From: a bacterium UBP8_UBA817
GTDB taxonomy: Bacteria > Margulisbacteria > Marinamargulisbacteria > SXXA01 > SICP01
DNA length: 64,000 nt
Assembly (NCBI GenBank): GCA_945888435.1
Contig: CAMCZW010000006.1
Location: forward strand, 2,509 to 66,508
Reading direction: 5' to 3'
The notes under the pieces: generated by a model
Told to the model about the DNA's origin: nothing
The model's input: the letters and a program-made list of their open reading frames with translations, nothing else
The model's database searches: none
Made by a program: the position numbers and the translations under genes
Shown: in pieces, positions 30,079 through 49,576 of the stretch
Layout of the letters: the number at the start of each line of letters is the position of its first letter
Position numbering within the stretch: the first letter of the stretch is position 1

Positions 30079-30176
30079 AAAAAACCCTCCAAAAATCCAA
30101 TAAAAAAAACGGCAAATAATGACCGTACTCACAATTTGCCTTGACTTTTTATGAGTTCTATCACAAAATGCCAAAT

Positions 30177-31331
30177 ATGCGTCGATACATTACTGAATAT
30201 ATTACAAAAGATCTTGAATCAAAACTGGTATTTATCACAGGCCCTCGCCAATGTGGAAAAACCACGCTTTCCAAGTCATTAATGTCACCATACACCTATC
30301 TTAATTATGACAACTCTGAAGACCGTCAAATCATCTTAAGAAAAACATGGAAACAAAACTCCCCACTCCTCATTTTCGACGAGCTCCATAAACTCAATAA
30401 ATGGAAACAATGGCTTAAAGGAATTTATGATACACAAGACCCATTCCAGCCAATCGTTGTCACAGGCAGTGCCCGATTAAATACATACCGAAAAGCAGGA
30501 GATTCATTAGCAGGAAGATTTTTTCAATTTAGACTTCATCCACTCGATATGAGAGAAATAGTACTCCACACAGACTCCACCCAATCACGAGCACAATTAT
30601 TTGAACAACTTTGGAACTGCAGCCCATTCCCAGAGCCTTTTTTAAAAGGTGATCCCACCTACTACAGGCGGTGGAGAACAAGCCATTTAGATGTCATATT
30701 AAGGCAAGATGTTCAAGATTTAAGCGCAATCCGAGACATTCAACAATTAGAAACACTACTCATACTTCTAAGAGAGCGCATCGGCTCAAATATCTCTGTC
30801 AGAAGCCTAGCGCAAGACCTTCAAAAAGACCCCAATACCATCCGTAAATGGCTAGAAATTCTAGAAGAACTCTATGTTATTTTCAAAGTAACCCCCTATC
30901 ATCGAAATATTGCCCGTGCACTCCTAAAAGAACCCAAATATTATTTCTTTGATTTTTGCCAAGTGACAGACGATGGCGCAAAGTTTGAAAATATGGTCGC
31001 ATGCGCATTACTTAAACATATTCATTTTATTGAAGATACCCAAGGCTACCACATGAATCTCCACTATGCCCGCACCCGCGATGGCAAAGAACTAGATTTT
31101 GTGATTACCAAAGAAACTCAACCCATCGCCTTAATCGAAGTCAAATTATCAGATGACATACCAAGCTCTTCCTTCAAAACGCTGAGTCCATTTTTTAAAA
31201 AAACCACACCCGCAATCAAATGCATCCAAGTGGTTAAAAACCTAACCCATCGCCAAGACTGGCCCTCAGACATCACCGTAATCCCCGCAATCGAGTTTCT
31301 AACAAGCGACCTCACCGAACTCTTAAAGTAA
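30177..31331 (+). CDS. AAA+ ATPase (DUF4143-type)
   Basis: Walker A GPRQCGKTT and Walker B LLIFDELH, with a C-terminal region typical of AAA_14/DUF4143 proteins. The start is ambiguous (30168 or 30177). Confidence 0.75.
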   Translation: MRRYITEYITKDLESKLVFITGPRQCGKTTLSKSLMSPYTYLNYDNSEDRQIILRKTWKQNSPLLIFDELHKLNKWKQWLKGIYDTQDPFQPIVVTGSARLNTYRKAGDSLAGRFFQFRLHPLDMREIVLHTDSTQSRAQLFEQLWNCSPFPEPFLKGDPTYYRRWRTSHLDVILRQDVQDLSAIRDIQQLETLLILLRERIGSNISVRSLAQDLQKDPNTIRKWLEILEELYVIFKVTPYHRNIARALLKEPKYYFFDFCQVTDDGAKFENMVACALLKHIHFIEDTQGYHMNLHYARTRDGKELDFVITKETQPIALIEVKLSDDIPSSSFKTLSPFFKKTTPAIKCIQVVKNLTHRQDWPSDITVIPAIEFLTSDLTELLK

Positions 31332-31403
31332 ATCCCTTTCCAAAAATACATTAATGTAAGAAATATAGGCGCAGTATGCGCAAGATGAACAATTTATTTC
31401 TAA

Positions 31404-31802
31404 CTAGCAAGCAAACCCAAGAAAAATTTTGAAACTATTCTGGAGGGATTTCTACCTGAGCGGGAATTTATTCAAGATGCCTTTGAGATCTCCTATTGTG
31501 ATATTTTACGACTCGCTATTCACAATAAGGAAATCCCAGAACAACCGATTGAAACGATGGTCCCCCATCTCATTTTAGATACCTACTTGATGATTACCCT
31601 TTACTGGATCAAAGACACCTCCAAGAGCTTTACCAACACCACCCAAGTTATCGATATGGCCACTGGAATTATGACAGGCCTTCTAAAAGAAGCGACCCTC
31701 CAAAAAACTCTCGATTTAGGCTATTTCTTGTTTAGAAATCATCTTTTCTCTCATTTCAATTTCGAAAAGGAGGGCCCCTTTCATGGATTTTACTCCCGAT
31801 GA
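31404..31802 (+). pseudogene. TetR-family regulator remnant (C-terminal ligand domain only, no HTH)
   Basis: The frame is open only from the stop at 31401-31403. The translation ..FLPEREFIQDAFEISYCDILRLAIH..LILDTYLMITLYWIKD.. looks like a TetR C-terminal domain. The N-terminal HTH is missing and a repeat fragment (31368-31400) sits at the break. Confidence 0.5.
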
Positions 31803-32602
31803 TCTACCCCTCTCTAAATCAAAACGACTAGGAATTCTTGCCAAATCAGCACTCAGGCTTGCGTCCAAGCACAGCTCACATCGTGCTTCTAAAGCCCTTG
31901 GACTTTCGTCTAAGGAGGACTCACTTCATCTCACAGAAGTCGCACAAGAAGCCTTCAAGACTCTCACCAGATTACGGGGGACGGCGCTAAAAGCGGCGCA
32001 ACTTTTGAGCCAGGAAACGCCCTTTAGAAGCTTGGTTGGAGACCAACCCATCCCAATCTCAACGAGATCATATCGGACAACTCATTTGGGATTTTTTTGT
32101 GACCCATTTCATTCAAAATGGGGTATTCCATGCCGATCCTAATCCTGGAAATTATTTAGTTTTATCCGATGATCGTTTGGGTGTAGTCGATTTCGGGTGT
32201 ATCAAAACGGTCGCTCCCACCTTTCCCCAACAATTACAGACGCTTTTTTGCGCACATCTGGCGCACAATAAGGATCTTACTCGAGAAATTTACGCTCAAT
32301 TAGGGGTCATTCCCAAGGTCATTCTAGAAGATTCTCAAAAATTTGACTCTGCTATTGCGCCTTTTCAGTCTTGGATCATCTTACCCTTCCAGTCTCAATA
32401 CTTTGACTTTGGCCAGCACCCCAACTATATCGGCTCTCGACTTATGGACAGCCTCCAATCCGCAATGACCGCTATGGATAATACGACTTCAGATTTTGTA
32501 ATGTTCGATCGAACTTATATTGGAATTTTAAGCTTACTGATCAAACTTAAGGCCCGCGTGAAGATGCAGGCATTGCTCGACGCTGCAGCACCGACCCCTT
32601 AG
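31783..32602 (+). pseudogene. ABC1/UbiB-family kinase remnant (frameshift plus large internal deletion)
   Basis: Two overlapping frames (31783-32142 and 32036-32602). The first carries LRGTALKAAQLLSQE (ABC1 N-terminal motif) and the second GVFHADPNPGNYLV..VVDFG (catalytic loop and DFG). About 200 aa normally lying between them are absent. Confidence 0.7.
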
Positions 32603-32643
32603 TTAAAAGGGATTTATCCTAAATTTAACAGAAACCCCTCTCC

Positions 32644-32753
32644 AAAGATTGGGCTAGTATGCGTAAGATGTGTAATTTCTCGCGAAGGGAGTTTATATAT
32701 AATAAATGACCGTAGCGAAAATTGTACAGATTGCGTATAATAGCCCAATCTTT
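32644..32753. repeat. long imperfect palindromic element, family B, intergenic copy
   Basis: The arms AAAGATTGGGCTAGTATGCG.. and ..CGTATAATAGCCCAATCTTT are reverse complements. The core ATTTCTCGCGAAGGGAGTTTAT..ATAAATGACCGTAGCGAAAAT is shared with 37381-37491. It ends 3 nt before tRNA-His. Confidence 0.8.
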
Positions 32754-32756
32754 AGT

Positions 32757-32833
32757 GGTGGACGTAGCTCAGTCGGTAGAGCACCGGATTGTGGTTCCGG
32801 TTGTCGTGGGTTCAATCCCCATCGTTCACCCCA
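32757..32833 (+). tRNA. tRNA-His (anticodon GTG) with encoded G-1 and CCA
   Basis: Hand-folded. Acceptor GTGGACG/CGTTCAC, D arm GCTC-AGTCGGTA-GAGC, anticodon arm CCGGA-TTGTGGT-TCCGG, variable TTGTC, T arm GTGGG-TTCAATC-CCCAT. G at -1 lies opposite C73 and CCA follows. Confidence 0.93.
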
Positions 32834-36848: not shown

Positions 36849-36943
36849 GTTAACACTCATCCCCCTTACCCCTTCTCTGTTCCAAAGAAGGGGAGATAAA
36901 AGCCCCTCTTTGTTCACAGAGAGGGGTTGGGGTGAGTGTTATC
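36849..36943. repeat. MITE-like nested palindromic element, family A, copy 2 (short)
   Basis: GTTAACACTCATCCCC..CCTTCTCTGTTCCAAAGAAGGGG..CCCCTCTTTGTTCACAGAGAGGGG..GGGGTGAGTGTTATC. It lies between rarA and tsaD. Confidence 0.8.
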
Positions 36944-36971
36944 TTCATAAAGACGATTTTAGGAAATTCTC

Positions 36972-38129
36972 ATGAGAATCCTAGCTATCGAAACATCGTG
37001 TGATGAAACGGCTGCGGCTGTAGTCACTGACGGACACACAATCGAGTCCAACATCGTCCATTCTCAAATCAAAGCGCATAAAAAATTCGGCGGTGTCGTC
37101 CCAGAACTCGCCTCCAGAATGCATGCTGAAATCATCAACAAAATCATCACTTTATCGCTTAAAAAGGCCAAGGTGACGTTTAAAGATTTAGACGCCATCG
37201 CCGTCACCCAAGGACCTGGATTAGAAGGCGCACTTCTCATCGGGCAAACCGCCGCCAAAACCCTCGCCAAAGCCCTTAACATCCCCCTCATCCCCGTCCA
37301 TCACATCCACGGCCATATCTACTCAAGCTTCCTTCCGACCCCCCCAGAAAACAACGAAAATGGATGTACCCAGGTTGTTTCAAAAGAGATGAGATTGGAT
37401 ATTTCTCACGAAAGGAGTTTATCGAGGAGCGGAGGCCTCAGCCGTAGCGGTATAAATGACTGTAGTGAAAATATTCAAGATCGCTCTTTTGGAGCAACCC
37501 CTCCATTTCCATTTCTCTCTCTAATCGTTTCGGGAGGCCACACCCAACTCGTTCACGCCAAAGACCATTTCGATTTTGAAATCATCAGCCAAACCAGAGA
37601 TGATGCTGTCGGCGAATGCTTCGACAAAGTGGCCAGAACACTCGGTCTCAGTTATCCAGGAGGCCCCGCCATCCAAGAGGCCGCCATTGGTGGTAATCCT
37701 AAAGCCTTCCCGCTCCCAAAACCCATGAGCAAAAACGGATACGAGTTCAGCTTCTCTGGCCTCAAAACCGCTGTCATCCAAACCATCAAGCCACTCACGC
37801 TAACACCTCAAATCGTCCAGGACATCGCGGCCAGCTTTCAACAAACCGTCGTCGACATCCTAGTCCAAAAAACACTCCTAGCCGCCAAAACCCTAAACAT
37901 CACCACCATCACCCTGGCAGGCGGCGTCAGCGCCAACACCGCCCTCAGAACCGCCTTCCAGCAACTCGCACCCACCCACAATCTCACCGTCATCATCCCA
38001 CCAATGATCTACACCACCGACAACGCCGCCATGATCGCCACAGCCGCCCACTACCAATGCCAGTACTGCCCCAACACCTCTCCAATATTCGCCGCCACTC
38101 CCAACCTCCCACTCTCCCATCCAAAATGA
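36972..38129 (+). CDS. tsaD: tRNA N6-adenosine threonylcarbamoyltransferase with a ~48-aa internal insertion
   Basis: ETSCDET, HHIHGH, SGGHTQL and TTDNAAMIA. The protein is 385 aa, against roughly 340 as I recall for typical TsaD. The extra residues lie between HxxGH and FPF. Confidence 0.92.
   Translation: MRILAIETSCDETAAAVVTDGHTIESNIVHSQIKAHKKFGGVVPELASRMHAEIINKIITLSLKKAKVTFKDLDAIAVTQGPGLEGALLIGQTAAKTLAKALNIPLIPVHHIHGHIYSSFLPTPPENNENGCTQVVSKEMRLDISHERSLSRSGGLSRSGINDCSENIQDRSFGATPPFPFLSLIVSGGHTQLVHAKDHFDFEIISQTRDDAVGECFDKVARTLGLSYPGGPAIQEAAIGGNPKAFPLPKPMSKNGYEFSFSGLKTAVIQTIKPLTLTPQIVQDIAASFQQTVVDILVQKTLLAAKTLNITTITLAGGVSANTALRTAFQQLAPTHNLTVIIPPMIYTTDNAAMIATAAHYQCQYCPNTSPIFAATPNLPLSHPK
37381..37491. 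repeat. family B palindromic element inserted in frame inside tsaD
   Basis: The 111-bp (37-codon) imperfect palindrome CAAAAGAG..CTCTTTTG has the core ATTTCTCACGAAAGGAGTTTAT..ATAAATGACTGTAGTGAAAAT, matching the intergenic copy at 32675-32722. Confidence 0.8.
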
Positions 38130-39518: not shown

Positions 39519-40445
39519 ATGGAACCCATGCAGGCAAAAAAAATAAAAACTCGTCAATTTTTTAATCTGGCAACCATACTTTTGGCAACCTATGTCATCC
39601 TATTATTCATATCAAGCACCCCCTTCGCTCAAGTAAGTAAGCTCAACAAAACCGAATTCGTCTTCGGCAACGGCTCCGGCTGGGAATCCGTCGGCACCAA
39701 CGCAACTCCATCGATGCGCGCAAAACTTCCTGTGATGTTAAGAAGTGGCAGAACTATAGAGAGCATTTTAAATGATTCAAGCGCAAGTTTTTATCAACAA
39801 TTCACAACCCCAACCCTTATGATCAATGCCATCAAAGATAGAATGTTAGGAATGATCGCTTCATTTGCCTACGTTCCAAATGCAAACACCGGCTGGCTAG
39901 TATGCGATGGATCAGAATACAGCACCGCCCAATACCAACAACTAGCAAACTTATTACGTGCCACATACAGCACAGCTGGAACAGGGCACCTCAATTCAGA
40001 TGGGGATTGGGCAGGAAGATTTAAAGTTCCAGATTTGAGAGGGTTATTTATTATGGGAAGTACCTCTACGACCAATGTAACAACAATCAATATTGTCAGT
40101 ACCATACCCCTACATACACATTTCTTCACAGCCGCTGGTAGTAAACAAATCAACACGCCAGCCGCATCAAGTGCAGCACATACTCACACCATCAAATCAC
40201 TATTAGAATCCTCAATGAATACAGATTTCGCTACGGATTCAGGATCAGGACTTCGTCGTGGGTCAAGCAGTGATGCCATACCAGATACCGTCTTCTCCAC
40301 AGTAAATAACCATAGCCATACATTTCCAGCATTAACCATGAGATATGGAGTTTCAACTCAATCATTAACACCAGCAAGACTAATAACTGAAAATCGACCC
40401 CCAAATGCAGCGGTTATTTTTTGTATTTATTCAGGGGTCCCATAA
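39519..40445 (+). CDS. secreted phage-tail-collar-domain protein, paralogue 1
   Basis: Signal/TM segment LATILLATYVILLFISSTPFAQV. Collar motif GMIASFAY..GWLVCDGSEYS..YQQLANLL..GRFKVPDLRGLF. Three HxH sites (LHTHFF, AHTHTI, NHSHTF). Confidence 0.8.
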   Translation: MEPMQAKKIKTRQFFNLATILLATYVILLFISSTPFAQVSKLNKTEFVFGNGSGWESVGTNATPSMRAKLPVMLRSGRTIESILNDSSASFYQQFTTPTLMINAIKDRMLGMIASFAYVPNANTGWLVCDGSEYSTAQYQQLANLLRATYSTAGTGHLNSDGDWAGRFKVPDLRGLFIMGSTSTTNVTTINIVSTIPLHTHFFTAAGSKQINTPAASSAAHTHTIKSLLESSMNTDFATDSGSGLRRGSSSDAIPDTVFSTVNNHSHTFPALTMRYGVSTQSLTPARLITENRPPNAAVIFCIYSGVP

Positions 40446-40447
40446 CA

Positions 40448-41449
40448 ATGAAAATCAAATTATTCGCAGTTATTTTTATCCTGTTAAGCATAAAAAATCC
40501 AATATGGTCAGCACGGTCAGGATTTTCAGCAAATCAAATTATATTTCAAGATGGATCCGGCTGGAAAGAAGCAACAAGTAATGTCTGTGGAACATCGGTT
40601 CAAGTGTTACAAGCGGTAGGAACAACGATACTCTCAAATGGAGTCGTATTAGATACTACCATCGGAACAGTCAGAAATTTTATAGATACATCTGTAATTG
40701 GGATGATTGTACCTTTCGCAAGCACACAAGTTCCACCTGGCTGGCTTCCTTGCGCAGGGCAAATCATTACTGTCACTTCAGTCTCTAATTGCGATTATCA
40801 GCAACTCGCGGACAAAATCCAGACAACTTGGGGCCCCGCAGCCAGTCCAGGGAGCATGGTCGGTGGAAAATTCGTAGGCCGCTTTCAATTACCAGATCTG
40901 AGAGGCCAATTTCTAAGAGGCGCATTAACCATTGATAATGCAGGAACTACCACCGTCGCAAGTCGAGAATCGGTTCTTCTTAATCCTGCAGATTACCCAC
41001 GTTACCGCGACCCAGACTTTGGAAGCCAAATCACATATAGTGGTCTAAATAACGGTACACTTGGAAGTTATCAGCCTTCTGGATTTACAAGCCACTCAAC
41101 TGAACATAACTTCACAATCGATGCAAGTTCAACAAGCGCTGTAGGCGAATCCCACAGCCACGCATCCGGCCAAATTACCCGCGCTGATGGTTATCACTTT
41201 TACTATCCTGAGGCCGTATCGGGAGTAGAGGGGTATGATGATGTGGATAATCATGACACGCTTTTTACTGATGATGACGGCTCTGATGATAATTATCATG
41301 GAACTTCCCCCGCGCTATCCGGTAACACTGGCTCTGGTACCGAAACCCATTCTCATACTTTTGCACCTACTATTTCTCAAGCAGAAAGCATAAGTAACCC
41401 ACATTCATACCCGCAAAATGCAGCATTCACATTTGGAATAAGGTATTAA
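40448..41449 (+). CDS. secreted phage-tail-collar-domain protein, paralogue 2
   Basis: The start is at ATG 40448 (MKIKLFAVIFILLS.. signal peptide). GMIVPFAS..GWLPCAGQ..YQQLADKI..GRFQLPDLRGQFLRG. His sites HSTEHNF, SHSHAS and THSHTF, plus an Asp-rich stretch. Confidence 0.8.
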   Translation: MKIKLFAVIFILLSIKNPIWSARSGFSANQIIFQDGSGWKEATSNVCGTSVQVLQAVGTTILSNGVVLDTTIGTVRNFIDTSVIGMIVPFASTQVPPGWLPCAGQIITVTSVSNCDYQQLADKIQTTWGPAASPGSMVGGKFVGRFQLPDLRGQFLRGALTIDNAGTTTVASRESVLLNPADYPRYRDPDFGSQITYSGLNNGTLGSYQPSGFTSHSTEHNFTIDASSTSAVGESHSHASGQITRADGYHFYYPEAVSGVEGYDDVDNHDTLFTDDDGSDDNYHGTSPALSGNTGSGTETHSHTFAPTISQAESISNPHSYPQNAAFTFGIRY

Positions 41450-41450
41450 G

Positions 41451-42347
41451 ATGAAAAAAATAAAACCCTTCTCATTATTAATCTGCATACTAGTTAGCCT
41501 ACTCCTATTTCCATACCAGCTAGTATCTGAATCCTATTTCAAACAAGATAGACTTCAATTTAAAGGAGGAAATGCATGGATCCCAACAACAAATGGCTCA
41601 ACAGAAGCAATTCTATTCTCAGGAACCGCCCTCACCCTTAGCAATGGAACATTCATCGACTCCGCTGACAAAAACATACTTCACTATGTTGCACCTTTAG
41701 TTGGCTCCATTATGGCATTTTCAATGTCAGGCACCTCAAATATCCCAGACTCCTGGTTAGTATGCGATGGAAGTGAAGTCAGAAAAACAGACTATCCTAT
41801 TTTATACAATACCATTGGAGACCTGTGGGGGACATCATCGGACCCTTCCAGATTTAAACTACCAGATTTAAGAAACTTCTTTCTTAGAGGAGCAGATAAT
41901 TTTGGAACTGGAGGTGGTGCAACTGGCGCCGCAACTAGAGATACCCGACCAAGATATACGACAATCGCATTTTCAGCTGTCAATTCCAGCACAATTAAAA
42001 CTGGATCTTATCAGCCAAATGAAATTTCCACACATACTCATGCGTTATCCATCACAGAAACTAGCAATACAGAAAGCAATGAACACACACATTCAATGAC
42101 TAATTTACATACCAACGACTTTAGAAATGGCGATGGCGCAGATGGCAATAATATTACCCTCTATGGCAATGATTCAAACTCATCAACAATAGTCGGGGCT
42201 ACGGTCTCAGGGGTAGCAGTCGGAACTCATACTCACACATATACATTCCCTAATACGCAAAGTGGCTTCGCGGGGGCAAATTTAACTGTGCACGGCGTCC
42301 CCAAAAGAATCCATCTCATGTACTGCATAAAATATGAACCTATTTAA
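41451..42347 (+). CDS. secreted phage-tail-collar-domain protein, paralogue 3
   Basis: Signal peptide MKKIKPFSLLICILVSLLLF. GSIMAFSM..SWLVCDGSEV..YPILYNTIG..SRFKLPDLRNFFLRG. THTHAL, EHTHSM and THTHTY. Confidence 0.8.
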   Translation: MKKIKPFSLLICILVSLLLFPYQLVSESYFKQDRLQFKGGNAWIPTTNGSTEAILFSGTALTLSNGTFIDSADKNILHYVAPLVGSIMAFSMSGTSNIPDSWLVCDGSEVRKTDYPILYNTIGDLWGTSSDPSRFKLPDLRNFFLRGADNFGTGGGATGAATRDTRPRYTTIAFSAVNSSTIKTGSYQPNEISTHTHALSITETSNTESNEHTHSMTNLHTNDFRNGDGADGNNITLYGNDSNSSTIVGATVSGVAVGTHTHTYTFPNTQSGFAGANLTVHGVPKRIHLMYCIKYEPI

Positions 42348-43668
42348 TAACAGTCGATCTAACGGCTTACCGTTATATTTATTCAGAATTGTCTTCGGAG
42401 TATTTTTACTTTTATCGTCCTTAAGCATCATAAAAAAAATAACACTAAGACATATTATGCATACCGCAGAAATATATATCCCCTACTTTAACTTTATTCC
42501 ATTACCATCATACACAGCATCACTAATACTAGTGTGTACATTATCACTACTATCCATCTTTTTTATGATTGGATACAGATTCAAGCTAGCAAGCGGGCTA
42601 ATATTCCTCATAAGCCTTTATTTCTTTTCTCTCCATATGGAAAGGTTTAATAACCATTATTACCTTGTCTTATTAATCCTTTTGCTCTTTACAGTCTCCG
42701 ATGCAGGGAAAGGACTTTCTTTAACAAAAGAGAAAGCCCCAGAATCGATACCAAGCTGGCAATTAAACCTGCTTCGCTTTCAGTGTGCCATCCCCTATTT
42801 TTTTAGTGGCATTCAAAAATTACTAGATAATGATTGGAGAAGTGGCGCATTAATGCAACATAGACTAAGAAATCTAACTCCTCATAGTTTATTCAGTCAG
42901 ATAGACTCCTATACCATTGGTTCAATAGTAGCAAAATTAGCAATTACATTTGATATTGCCATTGGATTTTTACTTATAAACAAAAAAACCAGGCGATGGG
43001 CTGCGATTCCATTCCTTGGCTTTCACTTAATCAATCATTTTATAATATTTGGTAAAATTGCAGGAAGAGATTCTGTAGGTGTTTTCCCACATATTGCCAT
43101 CGCAAGCCTGATTATCTTTTTTGACGGAGATGAAATTTCAAAAGGACTATCAATCCTAAAAGAGAAGTTTAATCAGTTTCAATTAAAGCTAAGTAACCAG
43201 GTCTTAACTCTTCAAAAATCAATTTTTCGCCCCTATATTGTATCGATAATACTTTCAATCATTATATTATTTCCAATATACAGATATGCAAATTACACGC
43301 AGACATATTGGAAAGATTTAAGAATTGGGACATGGAATAGCCATGCTCTTAAAAAAACTGGATTTCTAGATATTTACTACCAACATAATCAAACAGGGGA
43401 ATGGATTTTATATATCCCTCGTACTAATTTATTTATACCCCATTATAAAGCATTAGAATCGCCAGAAGGTCATTATCAATTAGCTCAAAATCTTAAATCT
43501 CAAATGGAATCAACAGGATTATTTGTCCCCTATGTTGGATTTATTTCCGAAATTGTAATCAATGGAAGTAAAGTGAAAAAATTTCAAGGAATTCTTCCTT
43601 GGGAAGAATTAACAGAGCAATTATTTGAAACTGAGTTCACAAAATCCATTCCAGAAACAAAGCAATAA
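42334..43668 (+). CDS. vitamin K-dependent gamma-carboxylase-like (HTTM) polytopic membrane protein 1
   Basis: 444 aa with [58 protein letters not shown] and [10 protein letters not shown], plus a C-terminal soluble domain. The ATG overlaps the upstream stop codon by 14 nt. Confidence 0.75.
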   Translation: [444 protein letters not shown]

Positions 43669-43670
43669 TC

Positions 43671-45008
43671 ATGAACAATCAAAAAAATACTTCAACTAGT
43701 ATCGAAAATTTAATATTAACACCCGTGATTAACCATTCCTTGATTTTATTTAAAATTATGATTGGGGTATTAATCTCATTTCTTGCAATCAGAAATATTT
43801 ACTTTGATTTTATCCATACCGCTTATATCAACAATACGTTCTACTGGCCAATATGGCCTCAAATGGCGCAACACATCCCAAGATCAATGTTTACCTATCT
43901 CAATCTCGGAACTCTTCTCTTCGGCATTCAAATCGCAAGACAAAAATGGGGAGCCTGGAGCTATTTTGGATATCTAATATGCTATTTACCCCTATTTACA
44001 TTTAATTACACGTATTATGAAGATTACCAATTACTACTCATCACTATTTGCGTATTACTAAGCTTAACAAGTCATCAAAAAGCAATAAAATCTGCACAAA
44101 TACAAAGCTGGGAAATTTTAATATTTAAGTTATTATTTTCCAGTATTTTACTATGGAGAGTAATCGCATATCTTAATATAGCCTGGCTCTCAGGTACCAC
44201 CCTTAAAACAGTTCTAGCTCCTACTGTATTAAAAAATCTGCTATTCAGTCCTTCAAATTGGATAATAATAGCGATAAGTATTAGTCTACCGATATTTGAA
44301 TGTTGCCTAGCACTAATCCCATGGAAATTCCCCAAATTAATCCCCGGATTATGGATCGGTCTTTTACTTTATTTCTATACCAATATTTTTTTCGACAGTG
44401 AATTTCAGTATAGTCAAATGCCTCTATTATTATTTGCGTTAAGCACCCTATTTTTACCAGCGGATTACCCTAAAAACTTCATCAAAAAAATAACTCAGCT
44501 ATTAGATAAGATTATCCAGGCTGGAAAGTCGATAAGCACTCCATCTCAAAATTCCACTCAACAGATATCACCTACAGTAAAAACCTTAATCGCAGTCTAT
44601 GTAATTATCCAGTTAATAATTCCATTGAATGTATACACGATATTACCAAATCATAAATGGGTAATAACCTATCCCACCTTCTCTTGGTCAATGAAAAAAC
44701 AAAGGACCGTTCAATATGGCTATCTCACACTAGTCAACCCAACTACAAAAGAAACATCACAGATAAAACCGCCTGATGGTGTATTAGATACTCCGCTAAC
44801 ACTATTAATATATGCCCATCAATTAAGAGATTCTTACAAAAGCCAATATGGAGTAACACCCGAAATCTACGCTCATTTAAGAAAATCAATTAATAATCGT
44901 CCTATAACACCCTACACAAATCCAGAAATTGATTTATCCAAAGTTAATTATCAATTTGGAAAATCCCCATCATGGATACTCCCTCAACCTGAAAACTACT
45001 TCAAGTAG
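43671..45008 (+). CDS. vitamin K-dependent gamma-carboxylase-like (HTTM) membrane protein 2, divergent
   Basis: 445 aa with the same architecture. C-terminal TFSWSMKKQ and GVTPEIYAHLRKSINNRPITPYTNPEIDL resemble the GGCX lumenal domain. The NNH and GxxK..DW segments are degenerate. Confidence 0.65.
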   Translation: MNNQKNTSTSIENLILTPVINHSLILFKIMIGVLISFLAIRNIYFDFIHTAYINNTFYWPIWPQMAQHIPRSMFTYLNLGTLLFGIQIARQKWGAWSYFGYLICYLPLFTFNYTYYEDYQLLLITICVLLSLTSHQKAIKSAQIQSWEILIFKLLFSSILLWRVIAYLNIAWLSGTTLKTVLAPTVLKNLLFSPSNWIIIAISISLPIFECCLALIPWKFPKLIPGLWIGLLLYFYTNIFFDSEFQYSQMPLLLFALSTLFLPADYPKNFIKKITQLLDKIIQAGKSISTPSQNSTQQISPTVKTLIAVYVIIQLIIPLNVYTILPNHKWVITYPTFSWSMKKQRTVQYGYLTLVNPTTKETSQIKPPDGVLDTPLTLLIYAHQLRDSYKSQYGVTPEIYAHLRKSINNRPITPYTNPEIDLSKVNYQFGKSPSWILPQPENYFK

Positions 45009-45090: not shown

Positions 45091-47415
45091 ATGCCAGTAT
45101 ACGGAATAGCAACAGCCGAACCAAAAATTCAACCAACAAAAGTGATGGTGGTTAATCAGGGATCAAATCCTGGTTCTATTGCTTCATCAATAAGCAATTT
45201 AGTAACAACATCAGGGCTAACACTTGCATCCTGGCTAGGATGGGTAAATCCAACTCCAGCACCTATAACCACTCACCCAGTAATACAATCCAAAAGTAAA
45301 ATCGTGACAGAAAACCCGGTACCAGCAAAAGAGAACCCTCATAGATCCAGAAGAGTAACTGAAAGTATCACAATAACAGAGGAATCAAGAGCCCTTGTTA
45401 ACACCCCAGGCCTAGGGAATTTTAATGAAAACAGCTTTGGTAGTCTTGACCACCGTTTTGCGATATCTATCTGGGGGCGAACATTAGATGCTAACGGAAC
45501 ACGAATACCAACAGAGCTATGGCTAAGTTTTTTAACGCTATCCAGTTCAGGCGACTACCGTACTCAAAATCATGAAATTATGATCAGCAGAGCAAGTGAA
45601 AGTCAACAAATTATAAAGAATGGAGGTTTTGGTATACTGTTTCTAAATTCAAAAGCAATAGTGCGCTGGGAAACACTCACAACTGGAGCAGATTCCAACC
45701 TCGCAAGCGCCTATACTCGGCATGCTAAAGTAGTAGATTTAGCCACAGGTGGACTTAGTGAATTAGAAATACCCAATATGATCCCACTTTCATTAAGCTC
45801 AACTACAGGTATTATGCTGGCATTACAGGGCAGCAATGGTCTCAATGCGACCTTAGTGACAGAAAATCCAGATGGGAGCATTACACAAACTCCGACACTC
45901 ATCCCTGGAATTACAACCGATTCAATCCGTTTCGGGGCGGTTAATTTACAAGGTCTAAAAAATAATAGCACTTCATTTTTTTTATCCACACTCACACAAT
46001 GTGCCATGTGCAGTATTCAGCCAGATAACACCATCACTTCAGAGATGCTACCTCTTGATCCCTCCTTATTTAGCAGTATCCCAGGGGCATCAACAACTAC
46101 TTTTGCTCCCGGTGTGATTTCATATTCTGCAAGACAAACACCTCCTGTTTCAATTAGATCACAAGCATTAGGCCAATTCACATTAATTTGCAATCTCAAA
46201 ACAGGGGCGTCTCAATTATATGACGGAATTACGCTTGGACCCGTATTTACACTACCGCCAGGCTCCTTACATAATCAAAATATTATTGAAGTCCCCAAAA
46301 TGGTTAGCCCCCCCCAATCCAATCATTTTTTGATGTATAACACAGTTGATAGAACCAGTATAAATATTGCACATCTATCATTAAATTCAACCCAAAAAAC
46401 AATTGAAGTCGAGTCTACATTTACAATTTCACAAAGCCATCCTGAGACAAGTGAAGCATTAAATCTATCCCCATTAGTCATAAAAGACCCAAATGGAGAC
46501 GCCGAAGTAATATCATTTTCTTGTGCACAAACTAATCCGCAAAGTTGTCAGGTAGATGCTTACAGATTAAATCCTCTCACCCATGATGCATCGCTACTAG
46601 GACATCTCGAACTTCCTGATGTTGAAAGTCGTACAAGCCGGGCGATGATAGCCATGAATAATAATAAAATCCAAATGATCTTCCCAAATGGGGCATCAAG
46701 CAATCCACTGGAAACGCGAGTATTTCTCCTACAGTATGTCGAGCGAGCGACCTCAACAAGTACTCAAAGACCATCAACCGCCACAACAACACCAAGAACC
46801 GCATCTAGTTCTAGTTCTAGTTCTAGTTCTAGTTCTAGTTCTACCCGTCAACCCACTAGCGCCACTCAAAATCAAGGTGTCGACGCAGTAGAGTCATCAT
46901 CAAGCAAAGGTGACGCAATCCTAAACACCACAAGTATTGCCGGTATTATTGTAGCGGGAGTAATTGTTGTAGCGGGAGTAATTATCGCAGTTGTCATATG
47001 TAACAGAGGCGACAAAAAAACACACCCAACAATGCTAGTCGTTACTCAAGCGGCTTTCGACCAGATGTTAGGTGATGGAAGCGTAGTCAATCCAAAAGAT
47101 CTAAAAATATTACGCGCCTCAGCATCCTTAAATGGACTCCCTACATCAAAAATACATCAACAAAGAACTGCAGTAGATGAAGAAGATCCCGATGCAACTT
47201 ATCAAGATATATCAAACGTTGGTCCAGGGGTTAGGATGGCGAGCCACCCTAGTTTTCCACACTACGAGGAACCAGTACCATTTGGCGGCCACGGCTACTT
47301 ACAAGTAAGCGCAGAAGGTCAAGGTCAAGGCCCAGTGTCAAATCCTACATACGACACGGCTTGCGAAAGCTACTACGACCCAGCAACGCTAAAAGGCTTA
47401 GACGTAACCAAATAG
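45091..47415 (+). CDS. large anchored surface protein A (conserved leader, unknown ectodomain, Ser/Thr/Pro stalk, TM helix, Tyr-rich tail)
   Basis: 774 aa with GGGGGA upstream. Leader LTLASWLGWVNPTPAPITTHPV..ENPHRSRR, stalk TSTSTQRPSTATTTPRTAS(13)TR, TM IAGIIVAGVIVVAGVIIAVVIC followed by NRGDKK. Paralogue of 47555-49576. Confidence 0.8.
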   Translation: MPVYGIATAEPKIQPTKVMVVNQGSNPGSIASSISNLVTTSGLTLASWLGWVNPTPAPITTHPVIQSKSKIVTENPVPAKENPHRSRRVTESITITEESRALVNTPGLGNFNENSFGSLDHRFAISIWGRTLDANGTRIPTELWLSFLTLSSSGDYRTQNHEIMISRASESQQIIKNGGFGILFLNSKAIVRWETLTTGADSNLASAYTRHAKVVDLATGGLSELEIPNMIPLSLSSTTGIMLALQGSNGLNATLVTENPDGSITQTPTLIPGITTDSIRFGAVNLQGLKNNSTSFFLSTLTQCAMCSIQPDNTITSEMLPLDPSLFSSIPGASTTTFAPGVISYSARQTPPVSIRSQALGQFTLICNLKTGASQLYDGITLGPVFTLPPGSLHNQNIIEVPKMVSPPQSNHFLMYNTVDRTSINIAHLSLNSTQKTIEVESTFTISQSHPETSEALNLSPLVIKDPNGDAEVISFSCAQTNPQSCQVDAYRLNPLTHDASLLGHLELPDVESRTSRAMIAMNNNKIQMIFPNGASSNPLETRVFLLQYVERATSTSTQRPSTATTTPRTASSSSSSSSSSSSSTRQPTSATQNQGVDAVESSSSKGDAILNTTSIAGIIVAGVIVVAGVIIAVVICNRGDKKTHPTMLVVTQAAFDQMLGDGSVVNPKDLKILRASASLNGLPTSKIHQQRTAVDEEDPDATYQDISNVGPGVRMASHPSFPHYEEPVPFGGHGYLQVSAEGQGQGPVSNPTYDTACESYYDPATLKGLDVTK
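46804..46842 (+). repeat. hexanucleotide microsatellite (TCTAGT) x 6.5 encoding poly-Ser
   Basis: tctagt is repeated six times, followed by tct. It is in frame inside surface protein A. Confidence 0.95.
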
Positions 47416-47554: not shown

Positions 47555-49576
47555 ATGAAACCAACCGAAATCACCAGCGTAATTCCAAGACCCCAAATTC
47601 AAACATCCTCACCCGCCACCCAATCCCAAAGATCAGACATCGCACCAAGCGGTGGCATAGCAGACACTATAAGCCGTACAGTGCAGACATCAGGGCAAAC
47701 ACTTGCATCCTGGCTAGGATGGGTAAATCCAACACCAGCGCCTATAACCACTCACCCAGTACCAAAATCCAAAAGTAAAGTCGTGACAGAAAACCCTGTA
47801 CCAGCAAAAGAGAACCCTCATAGATCCAATAGATCCAGAAGAGAAGCTTTAAGTTTCCAACAAGACGCTGTACAACTTCTTTCTCCTCAATCATCTGACT
47901 TCGAAGACTTTGAAGCGGCAAAAACTCTTAATAAAGAATATTTAACATTAACTTGGTTTAAAGAATTATCTATAGGATTTAAAATTGGATCTCCAGAATT
48001 TCAAGGAGAAGAGCATTCGCTAGTTATCCTCAAAAGATCACCTTCTGGACTCTACACCCCATTAACCCCTTCAGCAGTGATCATCAATACCCCTGCGCAA
48101 GATCGAGATCCAAGTAAAAACCCACCATTTTTAGCATTTGAAAAGACCGGCCTCATCGGAGTAATCGAACGTGTAATCCTTCAAAACGGCACCATAATCA
48201 ATCAGCAATCGGCCACAAAACTCAATTTGGAAACAGGTCAATTAGATGGCCAACTACACCCTGGTTACCTAAATTCGGTTAAACTAACCTCGTCGACAGG
48301 GGTATTAATTTCTCAAGAAGGGACTGGAGAGTTAAATGCATTAATGATTAAAGAAAATGCGGATGGAACAATAACCGGAACCCCCATTACACTCCCGGGA
48401 TTATCAGCAAACCGCAACACAGCAATCCAGACAGCAAGACTAACAGATAATTCGTTTTTAATTAAACTAGAGTCTACCTTAGCAAGGTTAACACTTAATG
48501 AAGATCATTCAGTAACTGTAGTGACCCTTTCAACAAGTTTATCCCCCAATGGAAATATCATGACATCTCCTATATTCGGAAATAATCTCTTGATTACTGA
48601 ATCAGCAATCTCTTCCATGGGCCGATTTTACAATGGAACCTCACTTGGCCAGCCATTTCCCATACCATTATCATTTAGCTACTCACCTGAAATAATTGAC
48701 ATCTCTCAAACCCCGTCAGGAAATAGAGAATTCCTATTCCAGACTCCTTCATTCCAGGCTCCTTCTGGAATCATAGGAAGCATTTCAATAGGTAAAGCAT
48801 CCTATAACCCACAAACAAATACTCTAGATTTTCAAGGAACAGCAACAATCAATGCGCATGCCTCGCAAGCCGCTATCATAGCCGGAGTAATGACAGATGC
48901 TGATGTCCAAGCAGGTCTTGGCGGCCCTGGAATCATTTCGTTTTCATGCACAGTTGACCAATGCCAAGTAAATGCCCATCGATTAGATGTTGATGCGATG
49001 ACTACCCAACACTTAGTCTCACAAAATGTATCAGATATCAGCGGACTTTTTTCAGGTAAAATGGAAATCACAGGTCCAAACATCCAAGTCTTTACCTTAC
49101 AAGAAAATCCAATGCATATGGCTATCACAAAGCTATTCATGTTAAAAGGGATTCCAGTAGCCAATACAACGACAACACCCAGACCAGCCTCATCTAGCCA
49201 ATCTATGCCACCAACTTCAGCCGCACCATCATCACCTTCCACGTCAATAACAATCCGCCCTACTACAGTAAGCCGACCCCCAGATCCGACGACAACTTTA
49301 AGATCAACCTCTTCCAGCTCTCAAACAAAACAAAATGACACAATCACTGATGCCCCCCAAGTCAGCCGCAGTCTCGACACTGAAACGTTAGTTGGCATTA
49401 TTGCAGGCGCAGTTGCAGGAGGTGTCGCACTAAGCATCCTCGGCTACCTAGTCTACTCAAAAATCAGAGGACTTCGGGTAGTCCAGTCAACCGAATTCAA
49501 GATAGCCGATGCGTTACAAAAGCTACCAGGGGTTAATCCAGATAATTTTGGATTTAACGAAACAGAAATCCTCTAA
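47555..49576 (+). CDS. large anchored surface protein B (paralogue of A)
   Basis: 673 aa with the same leader (QTLASWLGWVNPTPAPITTHPV..ENPHRSNRSRR). Shared blocks TSSTGV..ENADGTITGTP and ISFSC..CQVNAHRL. S/T/P stalk, TM LVGIIAGAVAGGVALSILGYLVY and a short tail. Confidence 0.8.
   Translation: MKPTEITSVIPRPQIQTSSPATQSQRSDIAPSGGIADTISRTVQTSGQTLASWLGWVNPTPAPITTHPVPKSKSKVVTENPVPAKENPHRSNRSRREALSFQQDAVQLLSPQSSDFEDFEAAKTLNKEYLTLTWFKELSIGFKIGSPEFQGEEHSLVILKRSPSGLYTPLTPSAVIINTPAQDRDPSKNPPFLAFEKTGLIGVIERVILQNGTIINQQSATKLNLETGQLDGQLHPGYLNSVKLTSSTGVLISQEGTGELNALMIKENADGTITGTPITLPGLSANRNTAIQTARLTDNSFLIKLESTLARLTLNEDHSVTVVTLSTSLSPNGNIMTSPIFGNNLLITESAISSMGRFYNGTSLGQPFPIPLSFSYSPEIIDISQTPSGNREFLFQTPSFQAPSGIIGSISIGKASYNPQTNTLDFQGTATINAHASQAAIIAGVMTDADVQAGLGGPGIISFSCTVDQCQVNAHRLDVDAMTTQHLVSQNVSDISGLFSGKMEITGPNIQVFTLQENPMHMAITKLFMLKGIPVANTTTTPRPASSSQSMPPTSAAPSSPSTSITIRPTTVSRPPDPTTTLRSTSSSSQTKQNDTITDAPQVSRSLDTETLVGIIAGAVAGGVALSILGYLVYSKIRGLRVVQSTEFKIADALQKLPGVNPDNFGFNETEIL

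Follow-up and report, generated by a model that had tools for sequence, protein, structure and literature searches.

The stretch of DNA analysed here, hereafter called the window, comprises 64,000 nucleotides of contig CAMCZW010000006.1 (assembly GCA_945888435.1, positions 2,509 to 66,508 of the forward strand) from the bacterium UBP8_UBA817 of the Marinamargulisbacteria. It contains an open reading frame for TsaD with a long palindromic hairpin inserted in frame, and a related hairpin immediately upstream of the gene for tRNA-His; hairpins sharing this core are hereafter called family B. TsaD, the t6A37 transferase subunit, is universally conserved and normally essential. The features of the two loci, all on the plus strand, are the following.

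32644–32753, plus strand: paralogous family B hairpin of 110 nt in the 5' leader of tRNA-His, with core arms at 32675–32696 and 32702–32722
32757–32833, plus strand: tRNA-His (GTG), including the encoded G-1, which was assigned by reading the acceptor stem; it begins 3 nt past the hairpin
36972–38129, plus strand: tsaD, an intact open reading frame of 385 amino acids which matches TIGR03723 and contains the hairpin insert
37374–37499, plus strand: family B hairpin insert, 126 nt or 42 codons (V135 to T176), aligned with the codons and delimited by RNA folding
37401–37422, plus strand: left conserved core arm, ATTTCTCACGAAAGGAGTTTAT, identical at 20 of 22 positions to 32675–32696
37423–37451, plus strand: apical extension of 29 nt, beginning CGAGGAGCGGAG, common to the copy on contig L003 (below) and missing from the tRNA-His copy
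37452–37472, plus strand: right conserved core arm, ATAAATGACTGTAGTGAAAAT, identical at 19 of 21 positions to 32702–32722

The product of tsaD scored 402 bits against the equivalog model TIGR03723 (cutoff 296) and matched solved TsaD chains of T. maritima with an E-value of about 1e-78. Residues 1–124 and 180–379 aligned with chain residues 1–122 and 127–325, respectively, and the 55 residues in between (125–179) faced 4 residues of the solved chain. In an alignment with 63 orthologues, all 63 invariant columns, including H111, H115 and D350, were retained. The segment from H115 to S187 is 71 amino acids long in the window TsaD, compared with 19–20 amino acids (the modal length) in 44 of the 63 orthologues and 42 in the next longest, which places about 51 extra residues C-terminal to the HxxxH metal motif. 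A reading made earlier from the letters of the window, hereafter the sequence-only reading, had noted the long segment between the HxxGH motif and FPF and had proposed an orthologue alignment to delimit it; the segment was confirmed, although its length, counted from H115, is 63 residues rather than the 62 given.

The closest relative with readable DNA has a TsaD (P0003, encoded on contig L001) with 75 % amino acid identity to that of the window in a pairwise alignment, and lacks the hairpin insert. Its loop between L and FP consists of 15 amino acids, SPTLPSPSREGYPNV. When the 42 codons of the hairpin are removed from the window TsaD, the loop that remains, PTPPENNENGCTQPP, is also 15 amino acids long, and one complete hairpin unit therefore explains the entire difference in length. 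The insert begins at codon position 1 and its frame is open throughout, with no in-frame stop codon, so that the frame and the peptide quoted in the sequence-only reading stand. The palindrome reported there, 37381–37491, is also present, and RNA folding lengthened it by 7–8 nt on each side, to 37374–37499. The sense strand of this unit folded with −50.4 kcal/mol (z −7.3), and 200 shuffled sequences were all less stable.

The insert also differs from its host gene in composition. It contains 27 % G and 16 % C, the remainder of tsaD 17 % G and 36 % C; its GC skew is +0.31, while all other 126-nt windows of tsaD have negative values; and its codon usage is poorer than that of every 42-codon window in the remainder of the gene. 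Population contigs were at least 99.85 % identical to the window, and the sole one spanning tsaD, the Logan contig L002, was identical to it, so that hairpin polymorphism was unavailable for analysis. The nearest named L19 proteins were only 50–63 % identical to that of this genome and were labelled 'bacterium', Margulisiibacteriota or Latescibacterota.

An AlphaFold2 model of the window TsaD, for which the 63 aligned sequences were the input, had a mean pLDDT of 88.7 and a pTM of 0.87, with pLDDT above 90 in the core. Residues 128–173 had pLDDT below 50, and residues 121–180 were without secondary structure. The model thus predicts that the TsaD core is intact and that the insert forms a disordered loop; on the question of a surface loop, raised in the sequence-only reading, it suggests that the insert is compatible with the TsaD fold and lies at the protein surface, as it does in proteins carrying Rickettsia palindromic elements (RPEs). 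The length of this loop is variable among the other TsaDs of the alignment, from 19 to 42 residues. As no stop codon interrupts the insert and the frame continues into the downstream catalytic half, the simplest reading is that it is translated as a flexible loop of about 42 residues, from which SGINDCSENIQDR would be an example of a tryptic peptide (residues 135–176), and that TsaD would retain its activity despite it.

Other short inserts are found in the same loop of relatives. The tsaD of P0003 (L001 7220–8251) has a mini-hairpin, CCCCCTCAAGGGAGGGG, and the P0002 TsaD has 13 extra amino acids (GAKGGEGSLPLIN) there, in addition to a G/P-rich C-terminal tail. Judging from these sequences, the loop looks like an indel hot spot in this clade, one in which hairpin-like sequence may have landed repeatedly.

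The core of the insert is shared with the hairpin upstream of tRNA-His, as the sequence-only reading had proposed. The left core arm, ATTTCTCRCGAARGGAGTTTAT, occurs at exactly two sites in the window, 32675–32696 and 37401–37422, and the right core arm, ATAAATGACYGTAGYGAAAAT, also at exactly two, 32702–32722 and 37452–37472; about 0.01 such matches are expected by chance, and two matches were obtained in none of 100 shuffled sequences. Both differences in the right arm compensate the two in the left arm, changing G-C pairs to A-U pairs. The extra DNA in tsaD is thus a discrete palindromic unit of foreign composition and a paralogue of the hairpin at 32644–32753.

The tRNA-His copy is itself conserved at its locus. 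The region 32638–32759 folded with −54.3 kcal/mol (z −10.2), and a hairpin is found at the orthologous site of the relative contig L001 (3258–3366), with a distance of 2–3 nt between the hairpin end and the encoded G-1 of tRNA-His in both genomes. BLASTN aligned window positions 32653–32744 with L001 3267–3353, with 85 % identity over the inner 87 nt. Identity between the two genomes was 78 % over the whole length of the hairpin and 95 % in tRNA-His, compared with 39–50 % at the fourfold-degenerate sites of tsaD, mgsA and rpoN and 44–49 % in the 60 nt on each side of the hairpin-tRNA unit. An internal loop, GAA/GUA in the window copy, is replaced by paired CAC/GUG in L001. Because its identity exceeds that of fourfold sites and spacers and is accompanied by compensatory changes, the hairpin is under purifying selection; on this comparison it is a selectively maintained structure in the 5' leader and not a recent insertion. 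Scans for sigma-70 promoters and intrinsic terminators gave no support for either role of the hairpin.

Between rmuC and the tRNA-His hairpin the window has about 2.4 kb (30141–32602) that are missing in L001, and this variable segment stops exactly at the hairpin. It contains a gene for a DUF4143/AAA_14 ATPase and an ABC1-kinase gene which is seemingly split over three overlapping open reading frames and may be a pseudogene; the Pfam scan of the latter covered the last of these frames only (32036–32602).

A third copy was found outside this genome. A scan of the GTDB genome collection (596 Gb) for the exact core gave two matches, one of which (L004) was a ribosome-binding-site look-alike and not family B. 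The true copy lies on contig CAYINU010000021.1 (L003), from a metagenome-assembled genome (MAG) labelled Ca. Marinamargulisbacteria. It has 97 % identity with the tsaD copy over 35 nt (one mismatch), from the left core arm into the beginning of the apical loop, and 25 of 28 identical positions in the right arm. The contig has a GC content of 51 % and a tetranucleotide correlation with the window of only 0.51, and is therefore regarded as another genome or a foreign island. This third copy is intergenic: an abiEi/abiEii pair encoded on the same strand ends 64 nt before it, a convergent tRNA-Arg is 206 nt away, and the site looks like the edge of a tRNA-adjacent island. The abiEi/abiEii pair (L003 873–3088, minus strand) is a type IV toxin-antitoxin or abortive infection pair.

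Three independent family B loci were thus found (the tsaD insert, the tRNA-His leader and the intergenic L003 copy), one of them in an open reading frame. The sequence-only reading had called for a search for further copies and a check of their lengths; the search yielded this one additional locus, and the only copy carried by an open reading frame is that in tsaD, whose 126 nt are a multiple of three. Within this genome two copies are present in about 73 kb, that is, the window together with some 9 kb to the left of it, where a covariance model (R1) run with filters off detected no further family B copy; R1 scored the two window copies at 113.5 and 100 bits, having been built from those same copies. 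Weaker R1 matches were other generic hairpins (5485–5596, the doublets of a second repeat, family A, described below, and a non-significant site on contig L014), and two further candidates, at 39893 and 41753, were paralogous Collar-domain coding sequence.

Wider searches gave little more. The exact-core scan of JGI metagenomes gave nine matches, none with a right arm, which were chance ribosome-binding-site-like matches; three exact scans of IMG/VR, with the right arm, the left arm and the apical core, gave none; and BLASTN with the element gave no match in PLSDB plasmids or INPHARED phages. Six-frame peptides of the three copies, searched as a concatenate against 5.8 billion proteins, matched only this TsaD. 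In Rfam, tRNA-His was the sole match at the gathering threshold, and E-value scans of both hairpin copies gave only noise (E >5). The scans of the collections required the exact core and missed the L001 copy, so that diverged copies would escape them. Family B is best explained as a previously undescribed, low-copy family of structured, imperfect hairpins of about 95–126 nt.

A consensus hairpin was derived from four sequences, the tsaD, tRNA-His, L003 and L001 copies. It has 35 pairs with 95.7 % of the cells paired, and in 17 of the 35 pairs both sides have changed; none of 500 shuffles equalled this, and pairing dropped to 34–48 % when the partners were slid. A bulged C and a 6-bp apical stem are invariant over the four sequences. 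The apical core is 92–97 % identical between the tsaD and L003 copies, and their outer stems are merely complementary.

The two strands of the hairpin are not equivalent. The tsaD copy folded with −50.4 kcal/mol in the sense and −24.9 kcal/mol in the antisense orientation, the tRNA-His copy with −54.3 and −35.9 kcal/mol, respectively. The stems contain 15 G·U oppositions and one A·C; since the sense strand is poor in G (9 % G at third codon positions), neutral decay should favour A·C over G·U. At each of the three loci the homologous strand runs in the direction of the gene that hosts or adjoins the hairpin, namely tsaD, tRNA-His and, for the copy on its 3' side, abiEii. The strand-asymmetric folding, the excess of G·U and the co-orientation together argue for constraint on the transcript, and the hairpin would accordingly be constrained on the sense strand as RNA, beyond what is expected of neutral selfish DNA, and may have a function at the RNA level. 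A hairpin formed by the top strand as single-stranded DNA (ssDNA) is an alternative to constraint on the transcript.

Taken together, these results make it probable that the insert in tsaD belongs to a small, undescribed family of long hairpins, with a conserved apical core, a bulged C and covarying basal stems, another member of which is the tRNA-His leader. A complete hairpin unit of 126 nt, or 42 codons, would have been copied into a TsaD surface loop that was already variable in length, after the lineage had split from its nearest sampled relatives; transposition in trans and templated or ectopic repair are candidate routes. Because the length of the unit is divisible by three, no stop codon interrupts it and it lies in a presumably disordered loop beside the metal-binding helix, it would be transcribed in the tsaD mRNA and translated, with the enzyme core intact.

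Several points weigh against this explanation. With three independent loci the size, mobility and function of the family are poorly constrained, and the copy counts cover about 73 kb of the genome together with the exact-core scans. The covariation of a palindrome may also stem from constraints at the DNA level, such as a protein binding both arms or ssDNA hairpins, and about 11 independent pairs underlie the excess of G·U. At −50 kcal/mol, moreover, a hairpin in an essential coding region should hinder ribosomes or draw RNase III, which makes its persistence there surprising.

A bolder form of the explanation, possible if doubtful, is that family B is an undescribed structured RNA module which was ancestral in the tRNA-His precursor, with a role in processing, stability or protein binding, and of which copies were planted in other transcripts, possibly via an RNA or ssDNA intermediate; in tsaD, selection would then keep the RNA structure and not the peptide.

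An unlikely alternative is that the hairpin is a co-opted functional RNA module, acting as an RNase III or other processing site or as a stabiliser in the tRNA-His precursor, and regulating the stability or translation of the tsaD-rpoN mRNA from within tsaD. The strong purifying selection on the tRNA-His leader copy, the contrast between the near-identical apical core of the tsaD and L003 copies and their only complementary outer stems, the bulged C in all four sequences, the sense-strand-specific pairing and the co-orientation at the three loci would all be expected of such a module. However, no Rfam family was matched, the three contexts have no functional link, internal-loop motifs (GAA/GUA and tandem GA) are lost in L001, and relatives do without the tsaD copy.

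It is rather improbable that family B is a selfish element of the RPE kind, as the sequence-only reading had suggested, that is, a multi-copy miniature inverted-repeat transposable element (MITE) with its transposase elsewhere, which is often inserted in open reading frames and survives where the frame is kept. The tsaD insert does have the appearance of such an element, being an in-frame, compositionally foreign palindrome in a tolerant loop of an essential gene, and other palindromic repeats abound in the genome, among them three family A doublets in 64 kb, one of which is directly upstream of tsaD. The near-identical core in a MAG of different composition could be the result of horizontal spread. 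An 8/9 direct repeat, ACCCCYCCA, at 37338–37346 and 37497–37505 could be a target-site duplication, but it lies at a distance of 27 nt from the hairpin's left end, within C-rich, low-complexity sequence of proline codons, and no such duplication was found at 32644–32753 or at the L003 copy. A proliferating family, however, was not seen: there are only two copies in about 73 kb, the exact-core scans of the genome collection, JGI metagenomes and IMG/VR added a single true copy, in another MAG, and the insert peptide occurs in no other protein in any frame. The termini differ and the centre is conserved, the reverse of what is expected of a MITE mobilised by a transposase; the tRNA-His copy is kept at the orthologous site by purifying selection; and no transposase, including RAYT or other Y1 transposases, was found among the ten small open reading frames of the window that were checked.

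It is very improbable that the insert remains untranslated, either because the mRNA is cleaved and religated without it or because ribosomes bypass it. Such a stable hairpin would draw both flanks together, but an insert without in-frame stop codons has no need to be removed, none of the known ribozyme and intron families was matched, 126 nt is below the size of a group I or group II intron, and on reading the sequence no pair of matching take-off and landing codons, as in T4 gene 60, was seen. Chance resemblance, or expansion of the loop in situ without any repeat family, could be suggested by the variable length of the TsaD loop in many lineages, but it is already effectively refuted by the core-arm matches and by the L003 homologue with the same apical loop, and is further opposed by the insert composition, opposite to that of the host gene, and by the R1 scores, although the model was built from both window copies.

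The family of conserved hairpins thus remains the preferred explanation. With its in-frame palindromic insertion in a normally essential enzyme, this uncultured, deep-branching lake lineage adds to the evidence that protein loops can be reshaped by hairpin repeats in bacteria far removed from Rickettsia. Of greater use for further work is the sister copy of 110 nt next to tRNA-His, which, with its purifying selection, compensatory changes and sense-strand G·U pairing, looks like an uncatalogued structured RNA. If the hairpins do act as RNA, one family would allow the spread of structured RNA motifs between transcripts to be studied, and the same family would show how a hairpin of −50 kcal/mol is tolerated or used within a coding region.

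Other repeats and genes of the window were noted. Family A consists of inverted doublets of a unit of about 43 nt (TAACACTCACCCC...CCCCTCTCTGTTCCAAAGAGGGG), at 15193–15310, 36851–36944 and 60612–60725 of the window and at 18799–18971 of contig L014; it looks REPIN-like, much more so than family B. One doublet fills the spacer between mgsA and tsaD, genes which overlap in L001, and family A is absent from L001 and L003. Contig L002 breaks within a doublet, and many copies in the genome are therefore suggested. A perfect 26-nt inverted repeat (5489–5514 and 5567–5592, with a 52-nt spacer), each arm of which is itself palindromic (GAGACAGGTTTCAAACCTGTCTC), lies between genes similar to those for OTCase and acetylglutamate kinase, and folded with z −10 to −12 on both strands. 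Positions 346–1398 (minus strand) encode a protein of 350 amino acids with a PF00443 ubiquitin carboxyl-terminal hydrolase (UCH) domain, according to precomputed Pfam annotation, which is unusual for a free-living bacterium. Downstream of rpoN, in a region syntenic in relatives (39519–45008), three tandem paralogues with a phage tail collar domain (PF07484) are followed by genes for HTTM (vitamin-K carboxylase-like) and VKGC lumenal domain proteins. A direct repeat of 165 nt with 89 % identity (45190–45354 and 47669–47833) occurs in two adjacent large open reading frames, 45091–47415 and 47555–49576, which are probably paralogues.

Among known repeat systems, the closest in behaviour are the RPEs, of which about ten families have been described, with dozens of copies, many of them in open reading frames and carrying a common conserved peptide (Ogata et al. 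2000; PMC10969869). Like them, the tsaD insert is a palindromic unit in the range of about 100–150 bp (126 nt, z −7.3), in frame in a housekeeping gene, presumably translated and at a site tolerated by the fold. Unlike RPEs, family B has one copy in an open reading frame, three loci, no shared peptide, one copy that is a conserved tRNA leader, and hosts in an unrelated lineage; a dispersed multi-copy family with a shared peptide in open reading frames was found neither in the 73 kb nor among the 5.8 billion proteins. The behaviour at tsaD is thus RPE-like, and the family as a whole, as far as seen, lacks the defining traits of RPEs and MITEs.

The sequence-only reading had supposed that such in-frame elements were confined to a few lineages, which is too narrow, since a 2024 review lists intragenic MITEs, carrying open reading frames or fused to them, in enterobacteria (ERIC), Coxiella (QMITE1), Anabaena and pneumococcus (PMC10969869). 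The intragenic ERIC (Delihas 2007), QMITE1 and Anabaena elements resemble family B in being small, non-autonomous palindromic repeats, sometimes fused in frame with host genes (PMC10969869). MITEs, however, are defined by conserved terminal inverted repeats and target-site duplications, whereas family B has variable termini and a conserved centre: no terminal inverted repeats are common to its copies, the outer stems being locus-specific and the apical core alone being shared. The consensus of integron attC sites, with the R''/R' end motifs RYYYAAC...GTTRRRY and a variable centre, is also the reverse of this arrangement, and on reading the sequence the ends of the copies were without R''/R' motifs.

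The hairpins of REP/REPIN-RAYT systems are likewise about 100 nt long, vertically inherited, and able to persist at orthologous intergenic sites and to fold as ssDNA or RNA (bioRxiv 10.1101/2024.10.14.618302). REPINs, however, are doublets of short REP sequences, extragenic, present in tens to hundreds of copies and tied to a RAYT (bioRxiv 10.1101/2024.10.14.618302), and family B differs in being a single hairpin with a unique apical core, low in copy number and with one intragenic copy.

As a model for the effect of a hairpin of about 50 bp in the tsaD mRNA, the Correia elements of Neisseria would be plausible by analogy. These are palindromic repeats co-transcribed with their neighbours, and their RNA hairpins are RNase III substrates that alter mRNA stability; they are also high-copy and intergenic, with terminal inverted repeats and TA duplications. 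Set beside these systems, family B looks closer to a conserved RNA structure, that of the tRNA-His leader, than to a transposase-driven MITE, and the tsaD case is a low-copy instance of intragenic palindromic repeats, a phenomenon with precedents in Rickettsia and other bacteria.

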